Assembly: GCA_903855135.1 (NCBI GenBank)
Contig: CAINYB010000022.1
Coordinates: forward strand, 1-62,837
Reading direction: 5' to 3'
DNA from: an uncultured bacterium
Lineage (GTDB): Bacteria > Patescibacteriota > Patescibacteriia > UBA1558 > GWA2-36-10
DNA length: 62,837 bases
Below the pieces are notes generated by a model, which ran no database searches, was not told the DNA's origin, and was given only the letters and a program-made list of their open reading frames with translations. The position numbers and the translations under genes were made by a program. Within the stretch, counting starts at the first letter, position 1. Each line of letters opens with the position of its first letter. Shown piece after piece: positions 8,776 through 61,655 of the stretch.

Positions 8776-8852
8776 AGCTTTGACTTTAAATTTTTTTTAT
8801 GTTTAAATAAGTAAGTTTCGCAAGGCTCATTGTCAAACAAGGAGGAGAAAAA

Positions 8853-9158
8853 ATGAAAGCGAAAGACGCACTTGATTGTCGATCCTTGGTGATTGACATG
8901 AGGAATCACTTGACTTTGTTGACCTACAGAAGTGATGAAAACATTCTGCACATTGGTCAAGCGTGGCGTATCAAAGGACTTGGCGTTGACCATGACAAGG
9001 AAGAAGATTTTACCATTATTGATTTTTCAGGTGAAGACCTGATTGATAGTACTGGTGAATATCAGACCTCTATTGGCCTGGAAAGTGCGCTCGATCATCG
9101 TCGTGTGAGAATTTCTCTGCTTTCTTTTTTCTTGAAAAATCATGAATTGCTCAAATGA
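8853..9158 (+). CDS. ORFan, GC-enriched island 1
   Basis: 101-aa ORF, AAGGAGGAG SD upstream of ATG; no family recognised. Confidence 0.5.
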   Translation: MKAKDALDCRSLVIDMRNHLTLLTYRSDENILHIGQAWRIKGLGVDHDKEEDFTIIDFSGEDLIDSTGEYQTSIGLESALDHRRVRISLLSFFLKNHELLK

Positions 9159-9171
9159 AATGGAGGACACC

Positions 9172-9414
9172 ATGAACGGCTCGGAATTAATCATAGGTAG
9201 AAACTATGAAATCCATGGTAATGATAGCAAAGGTTTACCGATTAGCAAAATTGTCAGAATTTTAGCGATTGACAATCAGCGTTTATTGGTTGATCGTTTT
9301 GGTTTTCACTATCCTGGAGTCAAGGTTGAAGTTCTGCGTGATGCTGAACAAATTTTTTTGTCCTTGCTGAATTTTATGGCTTTGCAGCCAGTTCTACAAG
9401 AGGAGGAAGAGTGA
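9172..9414 (+). CDS. ORFan, GC-enriched island 1
   Basis: Start moved to ATG 9172 (GGAGGA SD 5 nt upstream); 80 aa; followed by hairpin about 9421-9470. Confidence 0.5.
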   Translation: MNGSELIIGRNYEIHGNDSKGLPISKIVRILAIDNQRLLVDRFGFHYPGVKVEVLRDAEQIFLSLLNFMALQPVLQEEEE

Positions 9415-9609
9415 TCATTGGGGTCGTTTCGTGGAGTAAGCTACGCTTGCTTTGCGAAACGGCCTTTTATATTTGTCTAACTTTAGCCATTTTAGTTTAT
9501 TTTTTACTTTCATGTAGCTGTTTCCGGCAATGATTTCCCGATTCGCGGGAAAATGTGCGTTTCTTTGACTAGATTAACTCGTCTTGTTTTAATCCCGTCG
9601 AAGGCGGGA

Positions 9610-9638
9610 TTGACAAAACATCATCTTTATTGTAATAT
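9610..9638 (+). promoter_or_regulatory. sigma70-like promoter TTGACA-17-TAATAT
   Basis: Read directly: TTGACA 9610-9615, TAATAT 9633-9638, upstream of ORF 9699. Confidence 0.6.
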
Positions 9639-9698
9639 GTTGAATTGTCGGGTTTTGTTCTTTTCACAGCAGCAGTTGTCAGCAGAGGAGCTTCAAGT

Positions 9699-9968
9699 AT
9701 GACAAAATTGATTCAAGTCAAAAACATTGAGATCGGCCTCAGTGTTTTGAAAGAAATGGCTATTGATCTTGAGCTCGAAGCCCAAGGTCTTAGCGGCGAA
9801 ACAGCATCAGAAGCTTGGACTCGACACCATCGTGTCAATGCGGTGGTTTTGAGATGTGAGTCATTACTACGAGCCGGGCAGACAAGCGATGTTCACACTT
9901 TATTGTTTGCTGAAGGCATCAATGTCACTGGACGTATTAAACAACAGCAGAGGAGTCCAAGGCGATGA
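9699..9968 (+). CDS. ORFan, member of small paralogous family (island 1)
   Basis: Start moved to ATG 9699 (AGAGGAG SD); 89 aa; C-terminal AVVLRC..LL....V..LL...GI motif shared with the next two ORFs. Confidence 0.55.
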   Translation: MTKLIQVKNIEIGLSVLKEMAIDLELEAQGLSGETASEAWTRHHRVNAVVLRCESLLRAGQTSDVHTLLFAEGINVTGRIKQQQRSPRR

Positions 9969-10261
9969 AGAGGCTTTTTAGCTTGATAGGTTTGTTCAGG
10001 TCCAAGCCTGAGCTTTTTGTGTCTATGAATAGTCCTTCGCCACAAGAAGCCTTGGATGCTTTACGTGCTAAAGCAAAGATCTTAAGAGCACAAGCTGTGC
10101 ACTTTTGCCCGGGTTCTACCATATACCAGGATTCGCTAAGCAGAGCTACTGCGGCTGAGCAAGCTGTCGTACGGTGTGTGGGCTTGCTTGAGCGTCAAGA
10201 CTATAGCACAGTAAGATCAATTTTACTGAGTCATGGCATTGACACTCCTGTTACACGATAG
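9965..10261 (+). CDS. ORFan, paralog of 9699 ORF
   Basis: 98 aa; ATGA start/stop overlap with previous ORF; AGAGGAG SD; shared C-terminal motif AVVRC..LL; terminator hairpin 10272-10315. Confidence 0.55.
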   Translation: MKRLFSLIGLFRSKPELFVSMNSPSPQEALDALRAKAKILRAQAVHFCPGSTIYQDSLSRATAAEQAVVRCVGLLERQDYSTVRSILLSHGIDTPVTR

Positions 10262-10326
10262 CGGTCGAGCAGTCACTTTTGGTTCATAACAAGAACCCCT
10301 GTGACTGCTTTTTCATTTATTTAAAA

Positions 10327-10355
10327 TTGACAAAGAGCAGGTTTTTATTTAAGCT
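10327..10355 (+). promoter_or_regulatory. sigma70-like promoter TTGACA-17-TAAGCT
   Basis: Read directly upstream of ORF 10403. Confidence 0.5.
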
Positions 10356-10402
10356 AGAGATGGAAAAAAGTTCCTTGCACTATTTAAACGGAGGGTGAGA
10401 AC

Positions 10403-10783
10403 ATGGGTCACAAAAGATTTGTAACAGCGCCAGATGGCATCAATGAAGTGACTGGTGAAGATTGGCCAGATACTGATGGTCAAGTAGTGTCATTTTTTGA
10501 AAAAGGAGAACATGTTATTACCAGACAAATGCTCATAGACAGTGGCGTCAGAGTAGAATCTTTGGCTACTAATCCCAGGGACGCTTGGATCAATGTGGCT
10601 ATACGTATGATCAATGTTCTGAAGACTGACAGCGATGGTCAATTACAGAAATTTGATGTAGCCGAGCTAGATCGTCTGGTCAGCATCATGACTGTTGGTG
10701 TGGATTGTTTACGTGATCGAGATTTCCCTGCTTTGCAGCATGTTTTGCGAGAGAGGGGTTTCTTGCAACGCGTCGGTCAATAG
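10403..10783 (+). CDS. ORFan, distant paralog of the 9699/9965 ORFs
   Basis: 126 aa; GGAGGGTGA SD; C-terminus VGVDCLRDRDFPALQHVLRERGF resembles the family motif. Confidence 0.6.
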   Translation: MGHKRFVTAPDGINEVTGEDWPDTDGQVVSFFEKGEHVITRQMLIDSGVRVESLATNPRDAWINVAIRMINVLKTDSDGQLQKFDVAELDRLVSIMTVGVDCLRDRDFPALQHVLRERGFLQRVGQ

Positions 10784-10795
10784 CCGGACATCAAG

Positions 10796-10822
10796 CCACC
10801 GTCTTCGGACGGTGGTTTTTTT
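10796..10822 (+). terminator. intrinsic terminator CCACCGTC-TTCG-GACGGTGG + T7
   Basis: Perfect 8-bp GC stem with UUCG loop and T-run, read directly. Confidence 0.8.
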
Positions 10823-11313: not shown

Positions 11314-14259
11314 TTATTTCATATCACAACTTCCTTTAAATCCACATTGTTTACTGCACTCTGTACAGCCTCCTAATTTGACCATCACGCCTTGTTTGCA
11401 ATTAGGACAGATGTTTCCCGTGCTAGAACCATAGTTGCTGTCTGGGATTACTACAGGCTCTACAGTAGGCTCTTTGGCGGGTTCAAAGTGTTGGTGTGGA
11501 TTTTGCATTTCTGGAATTTCTACTTTATCTTTTTCTGCAAAAACTACAACTTTATCATCTCCACTAGATTTTTTGTAAGACATGTTCTTTTTTTCCGTAT
11601 CAGCAGAAGTAGAGAGTACTTGTTCAGTGCGAGAGTTATCGCGGTAAATTGTCACGCCTTTGCAACCAAGTTCATAAGCTTTTTCATAAAGCTCGGCGGT
11701 TTCTTCAACGCTGAAATTGGCAGGTGCATTAGCAGTTTTAGAAATAGAGGAGTCAGTCCAACGTTGTACAGCTGCTTGTACTCGGATGTGATCCATCGGG
11801 CTTAAGTCCATAGCAGAGACAAAAAATTCTGGTAACTTTTCTGTTTCGTCTTGGTAAGCGACAGCCAGTGGGATAAGCACTTCATGAAAACCTAGACGAC
11901 TTTGTCTAAAAAACTTGAAAGCATAATATGGTTCGATGCCAGTCGAGGTACCGAGCATAGAGCCGACAGTGCCGGTTGGTGCTTGGGTAGTCAAAGTGAC
12001 ATTGCGAATACCTTTTTCGCGGATAGCATTGCGTACATCGTCAGGCATAGTTTTCATAAAGCCAGAGTCAAGGAATTTTTCCGCTTCAAATTTAGGGAAA
12101 GCACCTTTTTCTTGAGCTAGCTCAGCTGACGCTTTGTACATCTCTTGGGTGATGATGTTATAGATTTTATCTATAAACTCCAAAGACTCATCAGAGCCAT
12201 AGCGCATACGTAATTTGATCAACAGTTCACCAAGTCCTAGCGTACCACCACCGACACGACGCTCTGATTTTTGATTGTCTTCATTTTCTTTAAAGTGATA
12301 AGGAGTAAGGTCAATGATATTATCTAAAAAACGAGTGAGGAGGCGGGCAGATTTTTTCAAAGCATCCCAATTCATTTTATAAACTGGACCGACAGTATCT
12401 TCACCGATGCTTTCGGCAAACGAAGCAAGGTATAAATGTCCTAAATTACAGACGCCCCAGCCTGGCAAGCCCTGTTCACCACAAGGATTGGTAGCAATGA
12501 TTTTATTAAAGTAATAAGAGTTGGATAATTTATTGTAGCGCTCCATAAAGACGATGCCAGGTTCAGCAGAAGCGTGAGCAGAAGCGATAATTTTATTCCA
12601 AAGTTCACGCGCTTTGATAGTCTTATATACTTTGGTTGGGTAGCCCATTTTTTTCCAAGCGTGTAAATCACCATTCCAAGTCTGATGATAGATTTCAGAG
12701 TAAGTCGGATTTTCATAATCAGGAAATTCTAAATTCCAATATTGGTCATGCTTGACGGCAGACATAAATTCATCAGACACCATGACAGAAATATTAGCAT
12801 TTTCTATTTGGCCAGCTGTGGTTTTACTTTCAATAAATTCTATCACATCAGGATGCCAGTCCCATTGCATCAGCATCAAAGCACCACGACGAGAACCACC
12901 TTGCTCGATCAAAGCTGTAGTGTAGGAGAAAAGTCCACCCCAAGAAACTGAGCCAGAGGATTTGCCGTGCACACCTTTGACATAAGCGTAGTGTGGGCGA
13001 AGGGCACTCAAAGACATACCAACGCCACCACCACGAGACATGATTTCTACCATCTGATAAAGCGTATCTTGGATAATACCACGACGTGAGTCAGCGGGAT
13101 TTGGGATAACGTAGCAATTAAACAAAGTAAGATTGCCAGTATAGTGATCTTTGCTATCGACATTAGCTCCGGTCATGATACGACCAGCAGGTTGAATATA
13201 TTTTTTATTTAGTTGTTCAAAAAATTCTTCCAAGTATTGAGTTTTTTTCTCGTCAGTTTTTTCTATGCTAGCTACTGCTTTAGCAACTCGGCGATGAGCA
13301 TCGTCGATGGACTCTATGGGCTTATCGCATTTGCGCAATTCTTGGGTGAATTCAAAATTATTTTCTTGATCGGCATAAATACCAGTCACCATATGTAAGA
13401 CCACGCGACCGTCGTCTAATATTTTTTTGATGACACCCAAATCTTTTTTCGGATATTTACGATCTTCTTTGGTGATGACGATCACTAAATCACCAGTTTC
13501 AATATCATCTTTTTTTTGTTTGATCGAATATCTATCTAAGAAAATAATTCTACCCAAAGCATCAAAATTGACGGATTGATTTAAGATGTGTTTAGCTTGT
13601 TTGCTTAAAAAAATATTTTTAGCTTCCAAGTCTTTTACTTCTTGGCAAGTCACTTCTTTGCCGTACTCAAGGCGCGCTTTTTTGCGCTGCTCACGATATA
13701 AAATAAAAGCTTTAGCAGTTTTAGCCCAGTTGTTTTGGATCAAAATAATTTCTATTACATCTTGGATTTCTTCCACAGTCGGAATTATTTTGCCATCAAA
13801 CTTATGTTCTAAAACTCCCAAAACAATGTCAGCTAATTTTTGTGCTTCTTGAGCATCAAACTCTCCAGTAGCAAGGCCAGCTTTTTGGATAGCATTAAAA
13901 ACTTTAGCTTTATCAAAGTCAACGATAGTGCCGTCACGCTTTTTAATTTTTTTCACTTCATCAGCGGTTTGGAAGTTAAGATTTTGGTGGTGGGAGCGGG
14001 ACTTAAAATAAGCACTGGAGGCTGAAGCCAGCTCATTATCTAACAAAATTATGTTCACTGCTGTACGCACATCGTCAGCTGATAAATAATCAGTGTCAAA
14101 ATTTTCCTCTAAGTACCGGATAATATCATCTGTCAGTTTTTCGGCCCTGTTTTCAGCTTCAAGTCCTGCTGACTGTAAAGCAGCCTTCAGGGAGAGGACT
14201 AGTTTGTGCTGGTCAAAGTTTTCTTTTTGACCATTGCGTTTGACAATTTGCTTGAGCAT
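11314..14259 (-). CDS. nrdJ: adenosylcobalamin-dependent (class II) ribonucleotide reductase with N-terminal ATP-cones and C-terminal Cys-rich zinc-ribbon tail
   Basis: 981 aa; ATP-cone VKRNG..E.F...K, catalytic NPCGEQ, TNPCGE region, tail CPNCK..CTECSKQC. Confidence 0.9.
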   Translation of the reverse strand: MLKQIVKRNGQKENFDQHKLVLSLKAALQSAGLEAENRAEKLTDDIIRYLEENFDTDYLSADDVRTAVNIILLDNELASASSAYFKSRSHHQNLNFQTADEVKKIKKRDGTIVDFDKAKVFNAIQKAGLATGEFDAQEAQKLADIVLGVLEHKFDGKIIPTVEEIQDVIEIILIQNNWAKTAKAFILYREQRKKARLEYGKEVTCQEVKDLEAKNIFLSKQAKHILNQSVNFDALGRIIFLDRYSIKQKKDDIETGDLVIVITKEDRKYPKKDLGVIKKILDDGRVVLHMVTGIYADQENNFEFTQELRKCDKPIESIDDAHRRVAKAVASIEKTDEKKTQYLEEFFEQLNKKYIQPAGRIMTGANVDSKDHYTGNLTLFNCYVIPNPADSRRGIIQDTLYQMVEIMSRGGGVGMSLSALRPHYAYVKGVHGKSSGSVSWGGLFSYTTALIEQGGSRRGALMLMQWDWHPDVIEFIESKTTAGQIENANISVMVSDEFMSAVKHDQYWNLEFPDYENPTYSEIYHQTWNGDLHAWKKMGYPTKVYKTIKARELWNKIIASAHASAEPGIVFMERYNKLSNSYYFNKIIATNPCGEQGLPGWGVCNLGHLYLASFAESIGEDTVGPVYKMNWDALKKSARLLTRFLDNIIDLTPYHFKENEDNQKSERRVGGGTLGLGELLIKLRMRYGSDESLEFIDKIYNIITQEMYKASAELAQEKGAFPKFEAEKFLDSGFMKTMPDDVRNAIREKGIRNVTLTTQAPTGTVGSMLGTSTGIEPYYAFKFFRQSRLGFHEVLIPLAVAYQDETEKLPEFFVSAMDLSPMDHIRVQAAVQRWTDSSISKTANAPANFSVEETAELYEKAYELGCKGVTIYRDNSRTEQVLSTSADTEKKNMSYKKSSGDDKVVVFAEKDKVEIPEMQNPHQHFEPAKEPTVEPVVIPDSNYGSSTGNICPNCKQGVMVKLGGCTECSKQCGFKGSCDMK

Positions 14260-14742: not shown

Positions 14743-14836
14743 GTTTATATAGAAAATCGTTAGAAATAGCGATTTTTTGTTTTGGCTAATATTAGCCATT
14801 TTTATGTGTTTTGAGCTATTTATAGAGGCTTATGAC

Positions 14837-14865
14837 TTGACAAGCATTAGAAAGCATGCTATTAT
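14837..14865 (+). promoter_or_regulatory. sigma70-like promoter TTGACA-17-TATTAT
   Basis: Read directly; about 380 nt upstream of the ATG at 15248. Confidence 0.55.
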
Positions 14866-15247
14866 GTTTCTTTACAGATAAAGAAGCGGATATTTTACAA
14901 GTGAATATTTTTAAAAGGAAGGAGAGAGCCTTTTTAAACAAGTATTAAAGATAATAAGCGTTTTGGCTTTCTACAACCTTTTTTAGGTAGTCAAAACATT
15001 TATTATCTTTTTTGTTTAGGGAAAATAGTGGAGAGGAGAGAGCGATATTTTTCATCTTCACCATTTTCTCTAAAAGATATTTTGGAGATTGCTTGTTCTT
15101 TAAAAAACTTGTTTGTTATTTTGCCACCTCATTCTTCTTGAGAATTTCACTTTTGATTTTTAATTTAGAAATTAGAAGCGAAGTTCTCAAAGGGGGAACT
15201 AAACACATCCATTTGCATTCAATGTGCAGGTGGAAAAGGAGGATATC

Positions 15248-15574
15248 ATGAGAATCAAGGAGACACTTGCCTTGTTTGCGGCCATTTGCGTGGCTGCTGC
15301 GGGTCTGCTCTCCATGCAGACCTTGCATGACCTTGGTGCACTGGCTTACCAGTGGCCACAGGTCATGTGCACGAGCAGGAGACTCACTTATGGCTTTCTG
15401 GCCATGGGTGGCATCTCGCTGCTCTTGGCGGGCGTAGTCTTTGTGTGTCAGTCGGCACATAAGGGCTACAAACTGATCGGCCTAATCGGCAGAAGTTGGC
15501 GTTTTAGCCGGCTTCGCTGGAAGTTTCGCTGTTGGTGCTATAGCATGCATCGCAGTGAGTTTGGCCGCTTGTAA
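15248..15574 (+). CDS. GC-rich ORFan membrane protein (island 2)
   Basis: Start moved to ATG 15248 (AAGGAGG SD); 108 aa; two hydrophobic helices then Arg/Trp/Cys-rich tail. Confidence 0.55.
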   Translation: MRIKETLALFAAICVAAAGLLSMQTLHDLGALAYQWPQVMCTSRRLTYGFLAMGGISLLLAGVVFVCQSAHKGYKLIGLIGRSWRFSRLRWKFRCWCYSMHRSEFGRL

Positions 15575-15694
15575 CTCAGCCGGGGTTTAAGTAGATTTTC
15601 CCTGTAAATAAAAATCTACGTTAAGGTAAGTTAGCTAACCTTAAATAGCTGACAAGGTTTAAAAAAAGGAGAAAGTTCTGGTAAAACTTTCTCC

Positions 15695-15758
15695 CTCTGT
15701 CTCGAGATGTATGTCTCGACTGATGAGCCCTTCGATAAAAACTCAGGGCGAAACAGAG
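15695..15758 (+). ncRNA. hammerhead self-cleaving ribozyme, type III topology
   Basis: CUCUG-UC|UCGAGA(UGUAUG)UCUCGA-CUGAUGA-GCCCU(13 nt)AGGGC-GAAA-CAGAG: all invariant core nucleotides, three Watson-Crick stems, GUC cleavage triplet (cut after C15701). Confidence 0.8.
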
Positions 15759-15967
15759 AAATTGTTCTTTCCCTTCGACTCATCCCGTCAAACGGGATTC
15801 GCTCAGGGTGAAAGATGATTTGTTCTTTGATAAAAATTTTGGCAAATATTTCTTGTTTCGTTTTAGAAGTTAAATTAATTTTTAGAACGAAGCAAGAAAA
15901 AATGTTTTGTACAGACTCAAAGAGAGTTTGTAGAGCATTGCTTGTCCTTGCTTCAAAGGAGGATAAA

Positions 15968-16501
15968 ATGAACGCGAATACCGCCGTCCCTACCCACACC
16001 ATCATTCGCCCTGGGCAAGTGTGGTCTGACTTTGGACCACAAGATGTCCTAGTTCTAGGTCCGCCTCAGCCATTGCCCAATGGACAGTTTGCTGTCACGG
16101 TGGTGTGTCTATCACAGCACAAGGCTGGTCCGCTGGCGCTATGTGAGTTGGTGTTATTCGAACCATTGGCTGGTGGCATGGAAGGCGTGATCCTACAGTT
16201 TCATGCCATAGCCACTGTACTATGTGAAGATTTGGTTCTTCACATGTGGGATGTGGATGACAGTGCGTTCCCTCTTATCAAGGAAACTTGGAAGTATGCG
16301 AGTGGTCTTCGTGGGCGACCGCAGACGGAAGAGTTCCCTGGTGTCCCAGATCTTTCATGGGATATTGGAGAGGAAGTGCCCAGCTTTGAGGAACTTCGAG
16401 CAATCGGAAATCCGATCGGCTGGAATCAGTCTTGGGCATTGTCGCTCATGTCTGATATGATCGCGCGGTTTCATGCCGCCCTTCACGCTGGCGAAGAGTA
16501 A
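15968..16501 (+). CDS. GC-rich ORFan (island 2)
   Basis: Start moved to ATG 15968 (AAAGGAGGA SD); 177 aa; followed by hairpin GGGAGAATT..AATTCTCCC. Confidence 0.55.
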   Translation: MNANTAVPTHTIIRPGQVWSDFGPQDVLVLGPPQPLPNGQFAVTVVCLSQHKAGPLALCELVLFEPLAGGMEGVILQFHAIATVLCEDLVLHMWDVDDSAFPLIKETWKYASGLRGRPQTEEFPGVPDLSWDIGEEVPSFEELRAIGNPIGWNQSWALSLMSDMIARFHAALHAGEE

Positions 16502-16827
16502 GCCAGTAAAGGTTATCGGGAGAATTACCTTTAAAATTCTCCCTCTCTACTCCAGCTTATTATTTATTGAGAGAGTAAATAATAAGTTGAAGTGGCATCG
16601 TAAAATGATTTTATGATGGACAGGAAACAAAATTTGTAGTATAAATAAATATTATTAAATCAGTAAAAGCTCGCAAGGGCAGGAAAAGTATTTCTATTAG
16701 CATCTTTTCAAAATTCTCTCTCCTTTGAAAAAATGTAGGAATTCTTTTCATCACTGCGCTTGCGAACTCTTGCTGATTTTTTGTTTCAAAAAAAGAAGCC
16801 CCGGGTTCATCCCGGGGCGTGTGATGA

Positions 16828-17226
16828 TCATTCAAAGTCAGCATTGAGTTTATCGACTACCAGTTCGAGCGTGGCAGTGAAATTATTCTCATTAAAGGCT
16901 CTGACAAATCGATGCGCTTCGTGTTCTTGGTCTAATCCAGTTAAAGAAAAAACCAAAAGCTCTTCTGATGTTAGCACGCTCGCTAGATACATGATGGCAT
17001 AGCCACCAAACTCTAGACCATTGATCATTGCTTTTAAGCGAGGGATTTGTTCAGAGCAGTCTTTTAAAGCAAGGACAATGGTGATATCTGGATTAGCGTG
17101 TTCATCTACAAAGTAACAGTTGGCATCATTTAATATTTTGTATACCTTATTATGTACGGTATTCTCAAGGTCATGACCAACAAGACAAATTTTGACTGGG
17201 GTTGGGAAGTTAGGTACATCAGGCAT
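16828..17226 (-). CDS. ORFan, second gene of a coupled pair
   Basis: Start moved to ATG 17226 (GGAGG SD inside the upstream ORF); 132 aa; terminator GCCCCGGG-TTCAT-CCCGGGGC downstream. Confidence 0.55.
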   Translation of the reverse strand: MPDVPNFPTPVKICLVGHDLENTVHNKVYKILNDANCYFVDEHANPDITIVLALKDCSEQIPRLKAMINGLEFGGYAIMYLASVLTSEELLVFSLTGLDQEHEAHRFVRAFNENNFTATLELVVDKLNADFE

Positions 17227-17572
17227 GATTGATACCTCCGATTTCTTCAGTGAGGAAGCAGAGCTTCTCAACTGTATTTTTACTTACTAGACGGCGATTA
17301 AAACGGTTGCTACCCAAAATTCGGAAAGAGCCAGTGATAAAAGACACTTCTACTAGGATGAAATGCTTGAGTTTGATATTTTGAATTCTGAAAGTCAGAC
17401 TTTCGAATTCGCCCTTACTAATCGTGACTACTACTTGAGCAGTAGCTACTTCACGAAATACATGATGGCCTAAAGCATTGAGTAGAGCTTTATATTGCTC
17501 TAATAAACAGAACGCTTTGTGGCTCAGTTGTTTTGGTTCTGTGAGGTTGATGATCAATCTTTGCCGTGCCAT
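17219..17572 (-). CDS. ORFan, first gene of a coupled pair
   Basis: 117 aa; AAAGGAGG SD; 8-nt overlap with the next ORF; 30 nt downstream of the beta-CASP gene. Confidence 0.55.
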   Translation of the reverse strand: MARQRLIINLTEPKQLSHKAFCLLEQYKALLNALGHHVFREVATAQVVVTISKGEFESLTFRIQNIKLKHFILVEVSFITGSFRILGSNRFNRRLVSKNTVEKLCFLTEEIGGINHA

Positions 17573-17602
17573 TTTGTGCCTCCTTTAGCTTTTGAATGAT
17601 TT

Positions 17603-18961: not shown

Positions 18962-19100
18962 TTTGTTTTGTTTACTCCGGCGTATGCCGGATATTTTTTA
19001 ATTTAGTTTGTTTTCCCGGTCCCCGCGTACGCGGGGAAGGCGGGAAATGCAAGATGTATTTATTATATCTTAAATTAGATTTTAAATAAATAAGAAAAAC

Positions 19101-19146
19101 CAGCCCCGGTGTCATCCTCGCGTATGCGGGGACCGGGGCTGGCTGA
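19101..19146 (-). terminator. GC hairpin terminator carrying a conserved 22-nt loop insert
   Basis: CAGCCCCGGT...ACCGGGGCTG stem; loop GTCATCCTCGCGTATGCGGGGA is identical to 57470-57491. Confidence 0.6.
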
Positions 19147-19156
19147 AAAAAACTTT

Positions 19157-19810
19157 TTATATTTTTCCGACTAAATCTAAACCTGGTTTCAAAGTGTCTT
19201 TGCCTGGTTCCCAGTTTGCTGGGCAAACTTGGTCACCATATTTATGGACAAATTGGGTGGCTTGAAGTTTACGCAAAAGTTCTTTACTAGAACGACCAAT
19301 TCCATTGTAGTGAACTTCGATAGTTTTTAAATTACCCTCTGGATCGATGATAAATGTGCCGCGTAAAGCCAAGCCTTCTTCTTCAATCATTACGCCATAA
19401 GAGCGAGTGATTTTACCAGTTGGATCAGCTAGCATAGGGAATTTTATTTTTTTGATCGTGTCTGATTCTTCGTGCCAAGCTTTATGGACAAAGACAGTGT
19501 CAGTGCTGACAGATAAAACTTCCGCATTAAGATTTTTTATTTCTTCATAATGATCAGCTAAGTCGCCAAGCTCGGTGGGACACACAAAGGTAAAGTCAGC
19601 TGGGTAGAAAAATAAAATCACCCACTTGCCTTTGTAGTCAGCAAGCTTAATTTTTTTTATTTGTTCTTCGTGATAAATTTCAGCGCTAAATTTTGGTGCT
19701 GGTTTACCAATTTTAGGGTTGCAAGCACCACAACAACAATTATTTTGCTCTTCATTTTCGTTGCAGCCACAAGAGCCACCACAACATTCATCCATATATT
19801 CTTTATTCAT
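19157..19810 (-). CDS. typical 2-Cys peroxiredoxin with Cys-rich N-terminal extension
   Basis: 217 aa; FYPADFTFVCPTE and VCPANW motifs; first about 30 residues contain 9 Cys (DECCGGSCGC..NNCCCGAC). Confidence 0.85.
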   Translation of the reverse strand: MNKEYMDECCGGSCGCNENEEQNNCCCGACNPKIGKPAPKFSAEIYHEEQIKKIKLADYKGKWVILFFYPADFTFVCPTELGDLADHYEEIKNLNAEVLSVSTDTVFVHKAWHEESDTIKKIKFPMLADPTGKITRSYGVMIEEEGLALRGTFIIDPEGNLKTIEVHYNGIGRSSKELLRKLQATQFVHKYGDQVCPANWEPGKDTLKPGLDLVGKI

Positions 19811-48029: not shown

Positions 48030-48038
48030 ATTTAGATT

Positions 48039-50408: not shown

Positions 50409-50445
50409 ACCACAAGGTCTACAACGGCATGAACGCTGAATACAG

Positions 50446-50486: not shown

Positions 50487-50563
50487 TAAATTTAAAAACA
50501 GCCAAATAAATTTTATTAAACGCCCTACGGGCTGAAAGCATAAAATTTATTTGGCTGTTTTGA

Positions 50564-50860
50564 TTAAAGCAAATCCACCACTAAAACGCCTTCACCACCT
50601 TGGGCAAATTTTCCTAAAGATACTTTAGCTATACTAGGATCTTGACTCAAATATTTTTGTAAGAGTGGTTTAATGACAGCGCCATTTTTTGAATGCTTGC
50701 CTTGGCCGACAATAAAAGCTATTTTAGTATAATTATTTTTTTGTGCATCTTTGATAAAATCATCAGCTAAACTATAAATTTTTTGTGGACTTAAAATACC
50801 CAAATCATGAAAATCAAGTTCAGCTTGGATTTTATTTAAATTTTCGTATTTATTAGCCAT
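50564..50860 (-). CDS. Smr domain protein
   Basis: 98 aa; LDFHDLG...GQGKHS pattern of Smr/MutS2 C-terminal nucleases. Confidence 0.7.
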   Translation of the reverse strand: MANKYENLNKIQAELDFHDLGILSPQKIYSLADDFIKDAQKNNYTKIAFIVGQGKHSKNGAVIKPLLQKYLSQDPSIAKVSLGKFAQGGEGVLVVDLL

Positions 50861-51651
50861 TATAATTTTTGATAATAAAATTCTGCTGCTAAATCACTTT
50901 GGAAATGCAAAGCTTTTTTTATTTGTGCGACTTGTGCGCCATTTTGTTTTAAGTAATAGGCTAAAGTATGGCGTAAAACTTGAGGATTAAGGCGTAAAAC
51001 ATCAGACATCTGATGACTGTATTTTTCAATGATACGTTCAACTGATCTAACAGACAAAGCTTGGTTTTTATTTTTGCCAGCGTGGTCAAAATTGATAAAT
51101 AAATATGGTGATTCGTCTTTTCTTTTTTGTAAATATTTTAGTAAATAAAATTTAGTAGTATTATTTAATTTGGCTTCTTGTTTTTGGTAAGAAATTATAT
51201 TTTTATTTAAATTTAGATCTTTTTTTTCTAGAGAGACGATAGTTTTAGCTTTAAAACCACTGTAGTATAAAATTTCTAATAAAATTTTATCACGCAAGCT
51301 GAGCAAATCACTGGGGTGGGGGAGAAGATTGAGATATTCGCTTAATTGTTTTTTAGTGAGGACATGAATGTTTTGTTTTTCGATAGACAAGAGCGTGATT
51401 TGCTGTTTTTGTTTGCTAAATTTTAAGTAGTCGTTGATGACGCTCAAACGTAAATTAATAGTAGCGATTTTTTTGTATTTATGTAGCAAAAATTCACGAT
51501 ATTTTTCACAATTTTTTGGCGTTATTTTTTCTTTATCTAAATAAGCTAAAAAATGTTTCAAGTGCCAGAGATAAGTGACTTGACTACTTAAAGATATTTT
51601 TTTAGTGTGTAAATATTTTTGGTATTTTTTTATATTTTCTGCTTGTGTCAT
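50860..51651 (-). CDS. tyrosine recombinase (Xer/phage-integrase family)
   Basis: 263 aa; box II VLRHTLAYYL, ..LHF......EFYY catalytic Tyr region; first catalytic Arg position apparently Lys (SGFKAKT) by hand alignment. Confidence 0.75.
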   Translation of the reverse strand: MTQAENIKKYQKYLHTKKISLSSQVTYLWHLKHFLAYLDKEKITPKNCEKYREFLLHKYKKIATINLRLSVINDYLKFSKQKQQITLLSIEKQNIHVLTKKQLSEYLNLLPHPSDLLSLRDKILLEILYYSGFKAKTIVSLEKKDLNLNKNIISYQKQEAKLNNTTKFYLLKYLQKRKDESPYLFINFDHAGKNKNQALSVRSVERIIEKYSHQMSDVLRLNPQVLRHTLAYYLKQNGAQVAQIKKALHFQSDLAAEFYYQKL

Positions 51652-57444: not shown

Positions 57445-57460
57445 AATTTAATCATAAAAC

Positions 57461-57504
57461 ACCCCCGCTGTCATCCTCGCGTATGCGGGGAGCGGGGGTG
57501 TTTT
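57461..57504 (+). terminator. GC hairpin terminator carrying the conserved 22-nt loop insert
   Basis: CACCCCCGCT...AGCGGGGGTG + TTTT; loop 57470-57491 identical to 19111-19132. Confidence 0.65.
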
Positions 57505-57515
57505 AAAGATGTTTT

Positions 57516-58124
57516 TTAAGCTATTATCGGTAAGCCATTAATCTCTTCTTTTTGAATACTTTTATAGAGAGGATTTCTTTTTAAAGCTGGTCTGCCTTCG
57601 TGCTCGACAACGTAATAAGCAAAGCCCTGCATTTGTTTGACTGATTCATAGTTAGCATGACCTGGTAAACTAGTCGGATCTTTTTCTTCGAAATCTACTG
57701 GACTATCATCAGCGGTAACTAGATAGGTATCGCCAGTATTGACTGCCAGGTGTCCATAGCCAGCAGGAATAAATAAAGTGTCTCCTTGTTTGATAGGTAT
57801 AGCCTTGAATTCTACTACCTCATCTGCAATCATTTCGCCTTTGTCATCAGTGGCTAATTTTTGTAGTAAGACAATACCTTGCCCATAGATAAACCAGTAG
57901 TTTTCGTCTAGTTTGCCTATATGATAGTGACCATAAGTTTTGATATATTCGCCACTCACTGTACCTGGCTCCCAGATAGTGATATTTTTTTGCTCGACGC
58001 CACCGCGGATCATGTAATAATGAAAAGCCGGACCAATGCCTTGTGGGTCCATCAAGACTTCTTGCATTTTTTCATGGGTTCTTGGGGCGTAGTGTTTTGG
58101 GACATTTGTAAAATCAATATTCAT
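57516..58124 (-). CDS. pgi: cupin-type glucose-6-phosphate isomerase
   Basis: Start moved to ATG 58124 (MNIDFTN..); TYGHYH and GYGH cupin metal motifs. Confidence 0.75.
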   Translation of the reverse strand: MNIDFTNVPKHYAPRTHEKMQEVLMDPQGIGPAFHYYMIRGGVEQKNITIWEPGTVSGEYIKTYGHYHIGKLDENYWFIYGQGIVLLQKLATDDKGEMIADEVVEFKAIPIKQGDTLFIPAGYGHLAVNTGDTYLVTADDSPVDFEEKDPTSLPGHANYESVKQMQGFAYYVVEHEGRPALKRNPLYKSIQKEEINGLPIIA

Positions 58125-58276: not shown

Positions 58277-58888
58277 TTACTTAGATTTTTTAAGACCTTT
58301 TTTTATTATTTTCGTCATTAATTCATTCTTGCCAGACATTCCTAAAATGCAAGCCTTGAAATAATCAGAGTCTTTGGTTTTGCTCCAGTCGATAGGATCA
58401 TAACCCAAGTTAACTACCAGCAGGTCTAAGAATAAACGAATAGTTCTACCATTACCCTCACGAAAAGGATGAATAGCATTATATTCATTATGGATTAAAG
58501 TAAGTTTTTTAGATATTGTATCTTTATTATCTTTACTATTTGGTAGTTTCTTTTTTAACAAAAGTTCAAATTTTTGCAAAGTTTGATCAATGTATTTTAC
58601 AGAAGCAAACAACATGCCATCTTTCGAAATATCTACATTTCTTACTTTCCCAGCCCAAGAGTATAGAGTGTGAAAAAAATATTTATGAATAGAAAATAAT
58701 AAAGAAAGGTCAAATTTGACCTCATCGTCTTTTAGTAATTCAAAAAAATGTGTGTAAGTATCTGCTAGTAATAAAGTTTCAGCTTCTTCTAATTTTTTCT
58801 TATCCTTGATGCCCAGTTTATTTTCTAAAACACCATTGTCAATACCAGCTTTCTTATTACTAACTTGATACCGAGAATGCCCGATCAT
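58277..58888 (-). CDS. Fic family protein (class I toxin-like)
   Basis: 203 aa; canonical Fic motif HPFREGNGRTIR. Confidence 0.85.
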   Translation of the reverse strand: MIGHSRYQVSNKKAGIDNGVLENKLGIKDKKKLEEAETLLLADTYTHFFELLKDDEVKFDLSLLFSIHKYFFHTLYSWAGKVRNVDISKDGMLFASVKYIDQTLQKFELLLKKKLPNSKDNKDTISKKLTLIHNEYNAIHPFREGNGRTIRLFLDLLVVNLGYDPIDWSKTKDSDYFKACILGMSGKNELMTKIIKKGLKKSK

Positions 58889-59015
58889 AGTTTTTTAAAG
58901 TTTGAATAAGTTGTTTATTTTTTTTAGCCTTACTAAAACTTAAACCTTCCATTTTGGAAGACTGTGAAATAGCTTTATTTATCTTATTTGTAGTTATTTT
59001 AAGCTTATTTTTCAT
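58860..59015 (-). CDS. VbhA-like Fic antitoxin (51 aa)
   Basis: Hand-translated MKNKLKITTNKINKAISQSSKMEGLSFSKAKKNKQLIQTLKNYDRAFSVSS; contains the inhibitory (S/T)xxxE(G/N) motif SSKMEG; overlaps the fic start by 29 nt. Confidence 0.55.
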   Translation of the reverse strand: MKNKLKITTNKINKAISQSSKMEGLSFSKAKKNKQLIQTLKNYDRAFSVSS

Positions 59016-59081
59016 AAGTTAATATTTTTAATATATCTATATATTAACACATTTTTTTGACTTTTTCAATGCACTAAAATA

Positions 59082-59239
59082 GCCAAATATTTCACCTAAC
59101 AGACCAGCGTATGAGAAGTTGACCGTGAAGTAGCTATGATAAAATTATATCATCATAGCTACGAACGGGCAATTTGCGAAAAACAGCTCCTTTTAGAGCT
59201 GTTTTTTCTCATACGCGGTGTTGTGTGATGTATTTTGGC
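59082..59239 (+). repeat. long imperfect palindrome, element A (158 bp)
   Basis: Arms GCCAAATATTTCACCTAACAGACCAGCGTATGAGAA / TTCTCATACGCGGTGTTGTGTGATGTATTTTGGC; inner hairpins 59130-59162 and 59184-59201. Confidence 0.7.
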
Positions 59240-59257
59240 AGTTGTATTATGAAATAA

Positions 59258-59902
59258 TTATTTTGAATCATTAAATATTTTAGCGACCAATTCTTTACGA
59301 GCATAGAATGCACGTGTGATTGGTCTTCTTTTGCCAGTTTTAGGATTTATTCCACCTTGTCCTTTTGTTCTAGCTTGGATCCACTTACCATCTTTGCCGG
59401 TTAAACTACTAAAGCCTTTCTTAATTAGTTTTGCTCTAATAAAATCATAGTCAGCTTTTATCTCTTTTATTAAATCATCAGTTTCAGAAAAATCTAAGCT
59501 AGTAACCTTTAGTAATTCGGCATTATCAGAATTTTTTCCATGCCACATGACCGCGCAAAAAACAATGGATTTCAATTTTTCCCACACATGACTTTTAAAG
59601 AATTCCTGTTCTTTCAATTCTTTTTGGTTAATCATTGTGATGGCCATTGTTTCCTTTGGTATTAGCTTATCTTTCACATGATAAAAACTTACAGATTTTA
59701 ATTCATAAGACAGACCATTCGGAGCCTTTGAAACATTGTTTTCCAAGCCAGCTAAAAGTTCCAAAATTAAACCTTTCCAACCCTTATTTTGTTTGCCAGT
59801 TTCATAGGTTGTTATTTTTAGCTTTTTAGCCAGCTGTCTTAAATCTTGGCCAATGTATTTTTTTAAATTTTTGATAGCTGTTGCTCTAGTAACGATTTTC
59901 AT
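59258..59902 (-). CDS. MutH/Sau3AI-family type II restriction endonuclease
   Basis: 214 aa; NKGWKGLILELLAG....YELKS, WIQARTKG and RAFYARK align by eye with the E. coli MutH blocks DKGW.G.LLE..LG, ELKT, YLQIRPK, RGFYLKK. Confidence 0.7.
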   Translation of the reverse strand: MKIVTRATAIKNLKKYIGQDLRQLAKKLKITTYETGKQNKGWKGLILELLAGLENNVSKAPNGLSYELKSVSFYHVKDKLIPKETMAITMINQKELKEQEFFKSHVWEKLKSIVFCAVMWHGKNSDNAELLKVTSLDFSETDDLIKEIKADYDFIRAKLIKKGFSSLTGKDGKWIQARTKGQGGINPKTGKRRPITRAFYARKELVAKIFNDSK

Positions 59903-59911
59903 AAATTTATT

Positions 59912-60700
59912 TTAAGATTTTGGTAAATCATTTAATCTTTTTATGGATAAGTCTAAATATTTTTTTTCTAAATCAATACCAATAAATTTTCTATCATTTA
60001 AGACAGCTGCTAAACCAGTAGTGGAGGAGCCTGTAAATGGATCCAGTATCAAATCACCCTTGTCTGTGCTGGCTAAAATTATTCTCACTAATAAATCCAT
60101 TGGTTTTTGCGTGGGATGCTTACCAAATTTTTTTTCATCTTTCTTGGGCGGATATATTGCCCAGACACTTCTCATTTGAGTGTTTGGTTTTTTCAAGAAA
60201 TCACTTTGCCAGTCACCATCTTTCATCGCTTTATAGTTGAATTTATGTTTTCCTTTTTTATCTTTTCTTGCCCAGATTAAAGTCTCGTGACTGGCAGTAA
60301 AAAAACGACAACTTAAGTTTGGTGAAGCGTTTGGTTTGAACCAAGCAACATCATTTAGAATATGAAAGTGATTAATTTGTAGGGCAAATCCGCATTGGTA
60401 AATAGAGTGGTATGTGCCACTAATCCAAATAGTTCCACCAGGCTTTAAAACTCTATGGCATTCTTTAATCCAAGAAAGATGAAATTCAAAGTCTTTTTTA
60501 CAACCATTACTAACATCCCATTCACCTTTGTTAACACTTACCATTTTGCCGGCGTGCACAGTAAAGCCACCATTTGAGAGTAAGTATGGTGGATCAGCAA
60601 AAATCATGTCAACGGAGTTTTCTTTTGAATTAGCTAAAAACTCTAAAGAATTGGCATTATATAAGGCAAATTTCCCTTTTTTGTAGTATGGTTTTATCAT
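59912..60700 (-). CDS. beta-class N6-adenine/N4-cytosine DNA methyltransferase
   Basis: 262 aa; IFADPPY near the N-terminus, ILDPFTGSSTTG SAM motif near the C-terminus. Confidence 0.85.
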   Translation of the reverse strand: MIKPYYKKGKFALYNANSLEFLANSKENSVDMIFADPPYLLSNGGFTVHAGKMVSVNKGEWDVSNGCKKDFEFHLSWIKECHRVLKPGGTIWISGTYHSIYQCGFALQINHFHILNDVAWFKPNASPNLSCRFFTASHETLIWARKDKKGKHKFNYKAMKDGDWQSDFLKKPNTQMRSVWAIYPPKKDEKKFGKHPTQKPMDLLVRIILASTDKGDLILDPFTGSSTTGLAAVLNDRKFIGIDLEKKYLDLSIKRLNDLPKS

Positions 60701-60778
60701 GATTCAAAATAATTATTTAATAGAAAATAGAGGTATTTTCCACCTCTATTATATCATAAAGTAATTATACAACAAACT

Positions 60779-61012
60779 GCCAAAATATTTCATACAACAG
60801 ACAAGCGTATGCGACGTCCCGAAACGAGCTTTGCGGTAAAATTGTGCGGAGCACACCGCAAGGGCGAGTGAGGGGTGTAGGCGCAAGCTTACACTTCTTA
60901 TAGGATAAAATTAAAAGTGCCTAAGCTAATTTAAGCACCTTTAACTTTAAAATTCAACTAAACATTAAGTGTAAGCTAAGCCGCATACGCGGTGTTATGC
61001 GTTGTTTTGCCA
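60779..61012 (+). repeat. long imperfect palindrome, element B (234 bp)
   Basis: Arms GCCAAAATATTTCATACAACAGACAAGCGTATGCG / CGCATACGCGGTGTTATGCGTTGTTTTGCC; second stem 60881-60896 with 60967-60981; inner hairpin 60831-60861. Confidence 0.7.
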
Positions 61013-61063
61013 AATAAATAATTACATTATTAGAGCACTTTTGAAATTTTTCGGCCACGGGCC

Positions 61064-61092
61064 TTGACTTTTTGGCTATGGTATGATAATAT
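61064..61092 (+). promoter_or_regulatory. sigma70-like promoter TTGACT-17-TAATAT
   Basis: Read directly upstream of ORF 61149. Confidence 0.55.
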
Positions 61093-61148
61093 CTAAAGTC
61101 ATGATATTTACTCGTGGCGAAGACGAACCTTAAAAGGAGAAGCAAACC

Positions 61149-61538
61149 ATGGCAACCGACGGACCCACTCCACCCCCCTGTGATCAGGAAATTTTTCAGA
61201 AAGGCCAGCCCGTGGCCGCTCTCGATGCCTCGTCCAACGCGGCCGAGAACTGGGTGCAGGCAGTGGCCAAGAAGGCCCGCGCCCGCGTTGACTGGCACTA
61301 CAGTGGCGGCATCGCGCAGGTGCTCCATCTAGGTGACGACGAGAGCCGAGCCCGTGTGGAAGTGGCGATGGACGAGCTCGAGCCTACCCTCAAGGGTACG
61401 GTCATGCGACGCTACAGGTCCGGCGAGTCCGGCCTGTACAGGCAGGGTGTCACTCAGACCCCTCCCGGAGCCGTCGCTTCGTTCATGGACCCGTTCACGG
61501 GCGAGGCGACTTACATGGTCAAACCCGATCAGAAGTAG
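61149..61538 (+). CDS. high-GC ORFan (island 5)
   Basis: 129 aa; AAGGAGAAG SD; G/C-rich third codon positions; terminator GGCCCG..(ATGTTC-TTCG-GAACAT)..CGGGCC at 61558-61597. Confidence 0.55.
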   Translation: MATDGPTPPPCDQEIFQKGQPVAALDASSNAAENWVQAVAKKARARVDWHYSGGIAQVLHLGDDESRARVEVAMDELEPTLKGTVMRRYRSGESGLYRQGVTQTPPGAVASFMDPFTGEATYMVKPDQK

Positions 61539-61655
61539 GCGCGTTGCCCAACCCCAAGGCCCGTACTGGATGTTCTTCGGAACATTACAGGCGGGCCTTC
61601 TTCATTTAAAAAATTTAAAAAGGTCTCAATTGAAAATATTTTCAATTATTTGTTT

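Follow-up and report, generated by a model that had tools for sequence, protein, structure and literature searches.

Genomic islands of horizontal origin have already been documented in Patescibacteria, and the general phenomenon is not new. In a survey of 125 aquifer Patescibacteria, as much as 13% of the genome length consisted of such islands, and intra-phylum events made up 83% of the detected transfers into Patescibacteria (PMC12455944). Here, we analyzed a contig of 62,837 nucleotides (nt) from an uncultured bacterium assigned to this group (GenBank assembly GCA_903855135.1, contig CAINYB010000022.1; the whole stretch is called the window below), in which 14 open reading frames (ORFs) form seven mostly GC-rich islands (islands 1 to 7, genes i1a to i7; coordinates in Table 1) with a total of 8.3 kb or 13.2% of the window. 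As in the surveyed genomes (PMC12455944), this is atypical accessory DNA with a coverage of about 13%, apparently exchanged mostly within the phylum and with cargo rich in unknown and membrane proteins. The differences are that the units are only 0.3 to 2 kb long and are built as autonomous cassettes (promoter, Shine-Dalgarno [SD] site, ORF, and terminator), that only the ORF body is GC-rich, that strong SD sites stand against an SD-less core, and that the joints between the ORFs are better conserved than the core genes. We did not find the small units, the GC confined to ORF bodies, the SD marker, or the conserved joints described in the papers searched, nor any publication that treats SD usage together with GC-rich islands in this phylum.

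Other known systems are also comparable. Hotspots of variable cargo with conserved flanks are known from P2/P4-like defense hotspots and “defense islands.” By analogy, the islands would share with the P2/P4-like hotspots a fixed position, conserved flanks, and diverse cargo of fast turnover with toxin-like proteins, but no mobile-element backbone is present and PADLOC gave no match. Phage morons are similar in being independent transcription units of atypical GC with small accessory genes; here, however, the units do not lie between prophage genes, match no phage family, and occupy chromosomal hotspots common to relatives. Integron cassettes are likewise compact, mostly one-gene ORFans with borders near the ORF ends and arranged in variable arrays at a fixed locus, but the units of the window have their own promoters and no IntI-type integrase beside the arrays. 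We found no IntI with a divergent attI (the gene of the sole tyrosine recombinase runs convergently to island 6, and there is none close to the other islands), and no attC-type site was recognized among the hairpins, which are those of terminators or untranslated regions (UTRs), with no dedicated attC model applied. For these reasons, the integron interpretation was rejected. We consider it probable that the islands are small autonomous cassettes that make up a flexible part of the genome, with cargo drawn from a higher-GC, SD-using gene pool and swapped at hotspots.

The window (overall GC content of 35.2%) is a Parcubacteria/Nomurabacteria-like contig. The nearest relatives of its nrdJ-like gene (11314 to 14259, minus strand) were all metagenome-assembled genomes of Patescibacteria: L026 (Parcubacteria GW2011_GWA2_36_10, 95% in the best segment), L007 (a La Plata bin, 80%), L008 (Candidatus Nomurabacteria HK-STAS-PATE-4, 79%, on an 842-kb contig), and L034 (Gw_Eff_bin_26, 80%). 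To compare composition, the 14 island ORFs were set against 50 native ORFs with unambiguous starts. Three island starts were corrected: 9172 (preceded by GGAGGAcaccATG) has both an SD site and the L026 orthologue in its favor, the ATG at 9699 follows the SD site, and 15968, which gives a protein of 177 amino acids (aa), is backed by a 177-aa representative. The native ORFs had a GC of 0.33±0.04 and a third-position GC (GC3) of 0.27±0.04 (range, 0.14 to 0.36), against 0.38 to 0.64 and 0.33 to 0.78 (mean, 0.48), respectively, in the island ORFs (Mann-Whitney P = 2e-8 for GC3). GC was raised at all three codon positions, and the amino acids differed as well, with G+A+R+P at 0.24 versus 0.17 and F+Y+M+I+N+K at 0.24 versus 0.36 (P = 1e-7). 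The contrast was strong at 15248 to 16501, 49185 to 50408, and 61149 to 61538; moderate at 8853 to 10783 and 47037 to 47246; and marginal at 16828 to 17572 (island 3) and 36121 to 37470 (i4, whose GC3 of 0.33 is inside the native range). Thus, the segments that an initial annotation had picked out by eye as GC-rich are borne out against the background, and most of their ORFs are compositional outliers, with the exception of i4 and, marginally, island 3. Two further GC peaks that it did not list (2400 to 2800 and 37600 to 38100) correspond to tRNA genes. The GC-richness is limited to the ORF bodies; promoters, leaders, and joints are AT-rich and conserved, with 29 to 42% GC in the joints.

A second contrast was found in translation initiation. 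The duplex energy with the anti-SD sequence was −6 kcal/mol or lower at 12 of the 14 island starts and at only 2 of the 50 native starts, in agreement with the earlier observation that native genes have no recognizable SD site. With the start corrected to 9172, i1b gains an SD site (GGAGGA), and i5, at 47037, reaches −5.8 with GAGGAG, so the tally of island ORFs with a strong SD is 13 to 14 of 14. The SD context that three island ORFs had been said to share is also real: the 10-mer AGCAGAGGAG is found three times (9681, 9946, and 47025), each before an island ORF, compared to 0.12 expected. This contrast between SD-led GC-rich genes and an SD-less core extends across the lineage. Among 522 ORFs from 38 other Patescibacteria loci with GC of ≤42%, those with a GC3 at least 0.12 above the locus median had an SD site in 55 to 58% of the cases versus 7% of the remaining genes (odds ratio, 17 to 18; P < 1e-16), while internal ATGs of the same GC-rich genes, used as a control, scored 13%. 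Since the use of SD sites climbs with genome GC (8%, 14%, 32%, and 43% over four bins from <38% to >55% GC), the SD plausibly moves together with its gene.

The anatomy of the units was examined with a strict promoter scan (TTGAC[AT]-N16-18-TAnnnT), which gave 19 sites, compared to 8±3 in shuffled sequences. Seven of them precede island units (9610, 10327, 14837, 37547 on the minus strand, 46957, 49018, and 61064) and the remaining ones front native genes and tRNAs, so this promoter type is not island specific. Terminators made of a hairpin and a T-run were detected by scan after five units, and another one after i7 was read from the sequence. The view that every unit has its own promoter, SD site, and terminator is thus sustained for most of them, with seven strict promoters and these six terminators. 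Island 3, which had been set apart from the shared architecture, does have a promoter and a terminator (Table 1). Housekeeping genes surround the islands (NUDIX, nrdJ, RNase J-like, Prx, CorA, VIT1, S15, and PNPase).

The island ORFs are real genes under purifying selection, since their dN/dS values range from 0.08 (i7 versus L037) to 0.14 (i1b versus L026) and 0.26 (i6b). They are also fast evolving: in the same genome pairs, dN was 0.19 to 0.40 for island genes and 0.057 for the adjacent native genes, that is, three to seven times their neighbors. The possibility that the GC-rich segments were structured RNA genes was rejected, given that Rfam provided only tRNAs and a hammerhead ribozyme (see below) and that both these dN/dS values and the protein homologues indicate coding sequence. 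Searches against Pfam, PHROGs, and PADLOC assigned no family to any island protein, with only weak zinc-ribbon hints for i5. In this sense, the products are, as first described, without family and mostly ORFans; the i7 protein, with at least 155 homologous clusters, and i2b, with a predicted MazF-like fold, depart from that description. Hydrophobic segments in i2a, i4, i6a, and i6b back the suggestion that several products are secreted or membrane bound.

Three hotspots could be documented between conserved core genes. Hotspot 1 lies between a cob(I)alamin-adenosyltransferase-like gene and NUDIX/nrdJ (8776 to 10820 in the window), hotspot 2/3 between nrdJ and an RNase-J-like gene (14750 to 17600), and hotspot 5/6 in the stretch Cyt-b5/VIT1/CorA/Smr-Xer (46920 to 50560). 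Different GC-rich, SD-led ORFs were found at the same hotspots in L026, L007, L008, L034, L044, L046, and L133 to L136, and the expected polymorphism among relatives is therefore seen as presence, absence, and replacement. At hotspot 1, L026 has orthologues of i1b and i1c, with the promoter region of unit 2 (9609 to 9679) 83% identical, and is devoid of i1a, i1e, and i1d, of which only the 3′ end remains together with the joint at 10227 to 10318 (93.5% identical); other GC-rich ORFs are present instead. L007 and L008 carry here ca. 2 to 3 kb of unrelated GC-rich, SD-led ORFs. Within the window, i1c and i1d are paralogues (E value of 0.008, 26% identity). Hotspot 2/3 measures 3 kb in the window and 645 nt in L008, where only a homologue of i3a is left (syntenic, 38% aa identity); another i3a homologue is found in L023, and these sequence comparisons point to an older, mostly vertical gene.

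At hotspot 5/6, orthologues of i6a and i6b occupy the same place in L044 and L046 (53 to 61% and 40 to 69% aa identity, respectively; 67% in L046 and 40% in L044 for i6b), and the first 95 nt of the island 6 leader are 85% identical to L046. Only three clusters homologous to i6a were recovered, two of them at this locus in L044 and L046. In the interval between Cyt-b5 and VIT1, L044 has a DUF4349 gene and a GC-rich, SD-led PRPP-synthetase-like gene in place of i5. Orthologues at the same loci were thus found for i3a, i6a/i6b, and i1b/i1c, shared with some relatives only, and because these are syntenic, not all units are recent. The joints were 85 to 95% identical overall (86 to 97% at island 2), compared to 72 to 80% for core genes (72 to 78% in the genome pairs used for island 2), so that noncoding joints are better conserved than the neighboring core genes. 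Based on the syntenic orthologues and on the conserved AT-rich joints around GC-rich ORF bodies, we consider these loci long-lived hotspots with swapped cargo.

Some other features of these relatives deserve mention. L046 has an extra GC-rich two-gene cassette of 3.4 kb (731 to 4206), inserted at the equivalent of position ~49020 of the window. Its products are a protein of 724 aa and a PQQ-type beta-propeller of 342 aa, and it is equipped with a TTGACA-17-TATGGT promoter of its own, a leader of 150 nt, and a terminator. When 10 cargo proteins of the relatives were compared to Pfam, only the PQQ-type propeller gave a match. Directly downstream of island 6 are an Smr-domain gene (50564 to 50860, minus strand) and a gene for a 263-aa tyrosine recombinase (50860 to 51651, minus strand), the only one found. 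Both have native composition (the recombinase gene is AT-rich), are conserved at this place in L044 and, for the recombinase, in relatives generally, and are probably housekeeping, Xer-like genes.

Island 2 has a modular build. It is ordered as leader, ORF A, hammerhead, AT-rich hairpin, SD site, ORF B, and 3′ region, and the ORFs vary between genomes. The leader holds an element (14908 to 15046) that is 86 to 97% identical to L034, compared to 78% for nrdJ, with two GGAGAGAGC boxes and an imperfect hairpin of 25 bp; the sole indel in L034 is an insert of 8 nt located exactly in the hairpin loop. This element had no match in Rfam. ORF A is a 108-aa protein with two transmembrane segments in the window, and unrelated ORFs take its position in L034 (84 aa, Cys-rich) and L133 (a 47-aa transmembrane peptide). 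ORF B of L034 has a DxE motif and, by eye, resembles a DEDD exonuclease, with no Pfam match. The AT-rich hairpin (15849 to 15899), noticed through spurious “mir” matches in Rfam, is conserved in L133 to L136, where the joint at 15847 to 15985 is 87 to 95% identical; in L134, an additional GC-rich ORF of 222 aa is located directly 5′ of it.

The RNA element between the two ORFs is a covariation-supported type III hammerhead ribozyme for which self-cleavage is predicted. It matched Rfam family RF00008 over its full length with 42.3 bits (E value of 7e-6), and the copy in L034 reached 44.6 bits (E value of 2e-6), both below the gathering cutoff of 48.5 bits, so standard annotation would miss it. 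As in the hammerheads of this family, the full core is intact (GUC, CUGAUGA, and GAAA) with three helices and helix III open; the lower score is the difference. Homologues were found in L034 (1169 to 1223, minus strand) and L133 (671 to 733, plus strand), which keep the core, with AUU as the triplet in L133, and the L134 contig begins inside another one. Over the only three full copies available, 8 of 15 pairs had compensatory changes, distributed in all three helices, and 95.6% of the cells were paired, compared to 29 to 49% when the partners were slid. A covariance-model search of ca. 1 Mb of Patescibacteria loci detected hammerheads only at the island 2 hotspot (in the window, L034, and L133 and at the beginning of L134), and the candidate notion of a general island feature was rejected. 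Bacterial hammerheads are reportedly often associated with phages, and the copy studied here would resemble those in its position between co-oriented ORFs of an accessory element; it differs in residing at a chromosomal hotspot of Parcubacteria, ca. 200 nt upstream of a gene with a MazF fold. We found no paper linking hammerheads with Parcubacteria.

That gene, i2b, is predicted to encode a MazF/CcdB-like barrel with a helical tail, which would make it toxin-like. Its AF2 model had a pLDDT of 81.6, and the top 50 PDB matches in Foldseek were all MazF toxins (E values of ~1e-4; target TM-score of 0.61 to 0.75). The modeled likeness to MazF/PemK concerns the N-terminal barrel. In contrast to those toxins, i2b has no similarity at the sequence level (no Pfam match at E of ≤0.1 and none in a profile search against PDB sequences), no MazE/PemI-like antitoxin beside it (upstream is the variable membrane ORF followed by the ribozyme, and downstream the terminator), and an extra helical tail of ca. 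60 aa. In an alignment of eight sequences, none of the Arg or Thr residues of the N-terminal barrel was invariant where catalytic residues would be expected. The C-terminal tail might act as an antitoxin in cis. Between alleles, high nucleotide identity ends at about codon 7 to 9 and resumes at about codon 165, leaving ORF ends 87 to 95% identical in nucleotides around a center only 41 to 45% identical in amino acids.

Only one cargo family could be traced, that of i7. It comprises at least 155 homologous clusters, in genomes of 33 to 69% GC and in huge-phage contigs, with E33, W35, D48, W49, and H50 invariant. All named homologues belong to Patescibacteria (Parcubacteria and Kuenen-, Sung-, and Magasanikbacteria). 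Across 46 loci, gene GC followed flank GC with a slope of 0.49: it equaled that of the flanks where the genome had ≥60% GC and was higher by 0.05 to 0.27 in low-GC genomes. In a rough neighbor-joining tree, high-GC and viral-contig copies were at the base, and genomes of 33 to 60% GC were interleaved in the clade that holds the i7 of the window. The same cassette appeared in L037, 90% identical in nucleotides (61148 to 61664), in an unrelated low-GC context; this identity begins at the start codon and extends for no less than 126 nt beyond the stop, and upstream, where the surroundings have diverged, conservation is limited to the −35 and −10 boxes and the SD site. The AF2 model of i7 (pLDDT of 91.8) is a ferredoxin-like alpha/beta fold. 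Its PDB matches were generic ferredoxin-like folds, none of them significant (E of ≥0.014), BFVD gave one weak, unnamed match, and a profile search against PDB sequences gave none, and the attempt to derive a function from the structure was abandoned.

Next to i7 there is also a structured repeat of ca. 240 nt (60778 to 61015) with inverted-repeat ends, an internal hairpin with compensatory changes between copies, and a folding z-score of −3.6. The full copy is upstream of island 7, and partial copies are found at 59086 to 59235 and, immediately downstream of the island, at 61650 to 61760; none of the other loci fetched contained it. The repeat may represent an element like a miniature inverted-repeat transposable element (MITE) or a small RNA. 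The idea of these repeats as cassette borders or as a MITE gained no support, with copies starting only at 59086, 60784, and 61659.

Taken together, the best reading seems to be a pool of cassettes that circulates chiefly among Patescibacteria with different GC contents and has some connection to large phages. The ORF bodies would derive from genes that evolved under higher GC and SD-led initiation, a pool formed mainly by other Patescibacteria with genomes of 45 to 65% GC and, for at least one family, by large phages. Cargo would be exchanged horizontally and replaced by recombination at the conserved joints (promoter/leader, inter-ORF spacer, and terminator), probably after DNA uptake through a type IV pilus/competence apparatus followed by homologous recombination. 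Such a replacement of ORF bodies would explain both the GC-rich bodies within conserved AT-rich joints and the syntenic cargo. Native mRNAs would be translated by SD-less initiation from AU-rich, unstructured leaders, and GC-rich incomers would be kept and expressed only when they carry a strong SD site with them or insert downstream of one. The cargo, small cytosolic and secreted or membrane proteins, probably serves in conflict or host interaction, and the hammerhead would separate the mRNA of the MazF-fold protein from the upstream cistron. A more daring version, to which we give a minor share of credence, is a recombinase-free cassette-exchange platform of low-GC Parcubacteria, in which fixed expression sites on the chromosome consist of conserved AT-rich joints at the RNA level (promoter/leader hairpins, the hammerhead, UTR hairpins, and terminators). 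These would double as homology arms for the swapping of GC-rich ORF bodies from a phylum-wide and phage pool, with two translation regimes (SD-less for the core, SD-dependent for the cargo) and a ribozyme uncoupling cistrons, including that of the MazF-fold protein.

Several observations weigh against the cassette-pool reading. No donor was found for 13 of the 14 genes, most of them singletons or members of tiny families; donor-like genomes together with an incongruent gene tree (itself rough) were seen for i7 only, the other families being too small for such a comparison. The GC-richness ends at the ORF borders, where wholesale import of cassettes from a high-GC donor predicts otherwise, and no recombinase, transposase, integrase, or conjugation gene is present inside any island. 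In composition, i4 and island 3 barely differ from native genes. The i6a and i6b genes are syntenic across relatives with a core only ~72% identical, yet have GC3 values of 0.50 to 0.78, and the retention of this GC needs slow amelioration, repeated allelic replacement, or selection. Finally, the 38 loci used for generality were reached via nrdJ and the i7 family and are not a random genome sample. The initial proposal of repeated acquisition from high-GC donors is supported by the foreign-looking composition, the polymorphism, and the compositional equilibrium of i7 only at ≥60% GC, and is not supported, in its simple form, by the syntenic i3a, i6a/i6b, and i1b/i1c or by the AT-rich joints.

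Two other explanations retain a small and similar probability. According to the first, the units are phage morons or decayed prophage remnants left by temperate phages of Patescibacteria, as might be expected from their own promoters, SD sites, and terminators, their atypical GC, and their small ORFans. Five IMG/VR contigs and a 595-kb record labeled “uncultured phage” do carry distant homologues of i7, and the copy in L121 is next to exonuclease/annealing-protein-like genes (of a recombination type typical of phages) and a thymidylate-kinase-like gene, as read from translations alone; BFVD also gave weak structural matches to phage proteins, and the said association of bacterial hammerheads with phages would fit. 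However, none of the 38,880 PHROGs families matched any island protein; no structural, replication, or lysis gene was found near any island in the window and no integrase inside them; i6a and i1e had no IMG/VR relatives and i2b only one match of 28%; an exact-pattern scan of IMG/VR retrieved no hammerhead; and the hotspots are common to relatives, with no border duplications or att-like repeats found at the islands. A phage donor, one of the two sources first suggested, thus has something in its favor for the i7 family and little for the rest.

According to the second, about equally improbable, these are native, vertically inherited, fast-evolving lineage-specific genes whose GC and SD sites are kept by selection (an SD-dependent regime or mRNA stability). 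The syntenic i3a, i6a/i6b, and i1b/i1c, the restriction of GC-richness to ORF bodies amid native-like, conserved regulatory DNA, and the lineage-wide link between SD and GC3 all agree with it. On the other hand, the amino acid shift toward GC-rich codons is what would be expected after a long stay in GC-rich genomes, i7 reaches compositional equilibrium in high-GC genomes alone, genomes of very different GC are interleaved on its tree, and the same cassette is found in unrelated contexts. Presence, absence, and replacement vary among close relatives, and the i7 copies of L075 and L118, in low-GC genomes, have fully AT-rich third positions (GC3 of 0.22 to 0.26), which indicates that selection for GC is not needed for function.

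Acquisition from a high-GC host of the presumed episymbiont, the other source first suggested, is very unlikely. Apart from the compositional argument, it could appeal only to some distant i7 homologues on contigs of 60 to 69% GC and unassigned taxonomy, whereas every named homologue is from Patescibacteria and those of the other cargo are confined to low-GC Patescibacteria contigs, at loci that are syntenic or similar. The absence of evidence for a host donor agrees with the predominance of intra-phylum transfer in the survey (PMC12455944). Lastly, chimeric assembly or contamination, i.e., GC-rich foreign reads joined into an AT-rich contig, which would account for the abrupt GC steps at unit borders, was rejected with practically no residual doubt, since islands 2, 3, 5, 6, and 7 have identical junctions with the same native genes in at least six independent assemblies of other samples (ENA ERZ273133xx, ERZ18643896, and ERZ1426664; Logan ERR4194106, ERR4194153, and ERR4194174), exact island proteins are found on 13 to 14 contigs each, homologous joints and cargo are at the same loci in relatives, and every GC-rich ORF is framed by a native-like promoter, SD site, and terminator.

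TABLE 1 Features of the seven islands in the window
Feature	Position	Strand	Description
i1a	8853-9158	+	101-aa ORF, SD AAGGAGGAG; opens unit 1 of island 1; GC3 0.39, SD dG −10.9; no Pfam, PHROGs, or PADLOC family and no homologue in relatives fetched
i1b	9172-9414	+	80-aa ORF, GGAGGAcacc before start; L026 orthologue 71% aa
Island 1 unit 1, terminator-like hairpin	9420-9466	+	20-bp stem and T-run
Island 1 unit 2, promoter-like site	9610-9638	+	TTGACA-17-TAATAT
i1c	9699-9968	+	89-aa ORF, SD context AGCAGAGGAG; L026 orthologue 51-53% aa
i1d	9965-10261	+	98-aa ORF, SD context AGCAGAGGAG; 4-nt overlap with i1c
i1e, promoter-like site	10327-10355	+	TTGACA-17-TAAGCT
i1e	10403-10783	+	126-aa ORF, SD GGAGGGTGA; no IMG/VR relative
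Island 1 end, terminator-like hairpin	10793-10818	+	
Island 2, promoter-like site	14837-14865	+	TTGACA-17-TATTAT, upstream TG, 11/12 matches
Island 2 leader	14866-15247	+	Long, AT-rich; holds conserved element at ~14908-15046
i2a	15248-15574	+	108-aa ORF, hydrophobic segments 3-27 and 46-70, SD AAGGAGGA, GC3 0.65
Type III hammerhead ribozyme (predicted)	15694-15759	+	Located between i2a and i2b; cleavage predicted 3′ of the C in GUC (15701)
AT-rich hairpin	15849-15899	+	Near-perfect, 23 bp; 5′ UTR of i2b, part of conserved joint
i2b	15968-16501	+	177-aa ORF, predicted MazF/CcdB-like barrel (~15-115) and C-terminal helical tail, SD AAGGAGGA
Island 3 end, terminator-like hairpin	16818-16798	−	
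i3a	16828-17226	−	132-aa ORF, SD GGAGGT, GC3 0.35
i3b	17219-17572	−	117-aa ORF, SD AAGGAGG; no homologue in loci fetched
Island 3, promoter-like site	17655-17627	−	TTGACA-17-AAGAAT
i4	36121-37470	−	449-aa predicted secreted propeller-like repeat protein, SD GGAGAAG, signal-like segment 3-22; no Pfam family
i4, promoter	37547-37519	−	
i4, terminator	36107-36084	−	
Island 5 unit	46957-47279	+	Promoter 46957-46985, terminator 47256-47279
i5	47037-47246	+	69-aa Cys-rich zinc-ribbon-like protein, SD AGCAGAGGAG; Pfam zinc-ribbon hints weak
Island 6, promoter and leader	49018-49184	+	TTGACA-17-TAGGTT; leader 138 nt
i6a	49185-49988	+	267-aa membrane-/lipoprotein-like, GC3 0.66
i6b	50049-50408	+	119-aa ORF, signal-like N terminus, hydrophobic C terminus, SD TAGGAGGA, GC3 0.78
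Island 6 end, terminator-like hairpin	50445-50476	+	14-bp stem
Island 7, promoter	61064-61092	+	TTGACT-17-TAATAT, extended −10 region
i7	61149-61538	+	129-aa ORF, N terminus MATDGPTPPPCD, GC 0.64, GC3 0.75
i7 3′ terminator-like hairpin	61556-61607	+	GC-rich hairpin and T-rich tract, read from sequence; inside the L037-shared segment 61148-61664

Outside the islands, the window contains other repeats and a set of neighboring genes. Three pairs of intergenic repeats are 76 to 88% identical: 19097 to 19159 and 57456 to 57518, 29485 to 29532 and 45454 to 45501, and 34499 to 34573 and 35496 to 35570. The first two pairs are GC-rich hairpins in a terminator-like position after native genes, and the third brackets a gene for a 299-aa protein (34592 to 35491). 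In the tRNA cluster adjoining island 4, an exact direct repeat of 45 nt (37798 to 37842 and 37860 to 37904), with a third copy of 83% identity (37952 to 37997), includes the 5′-terminal 12 nt of tRNA-Lys together with upstream sequence. At 58277 to 60700 (minus strand) there is a Fic-domain gene followed by genes for a MutH/Sau3AI-like endonuclease and an N6/N4 DNA methyltransferase, the latter two resembling a type II restriction-modification pair; all three are AT-rich, have no SD site, and are native-like.

Patescibacteria, with their tiny genomes, are presumed to depend on other cells, and the part of the genome that varies between strains likely mediates attachment, conflict, and defense. 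In the window, this variable part can be recognized from the sequence alone by its GC-rich ORF bodies, strong SD sites, and own promoters and terminators; it clusters in a few hotspots, evolves under purifying selection, and consists mostly of protein “dark matter.” The two-class architecture of SD and GC3, the conserved AT-rich joints, and the sub-threshold hammerhead beside a gene with a predicted MazF fold appear to be undescribed in the literature searched. As 38 further low-GC loci also followed the SD/GC3 rule, the latter could be a cheap marker of accessory genes and could guide the choice of start codons in the annotation of genomes of the candidate phyla radiation (CPR). Two leads stand out for the biology of these organisms, the i7 family, with its many clusters and confidently predicted fold, and the hammerhead upstream of the putative MazF-fold gene.

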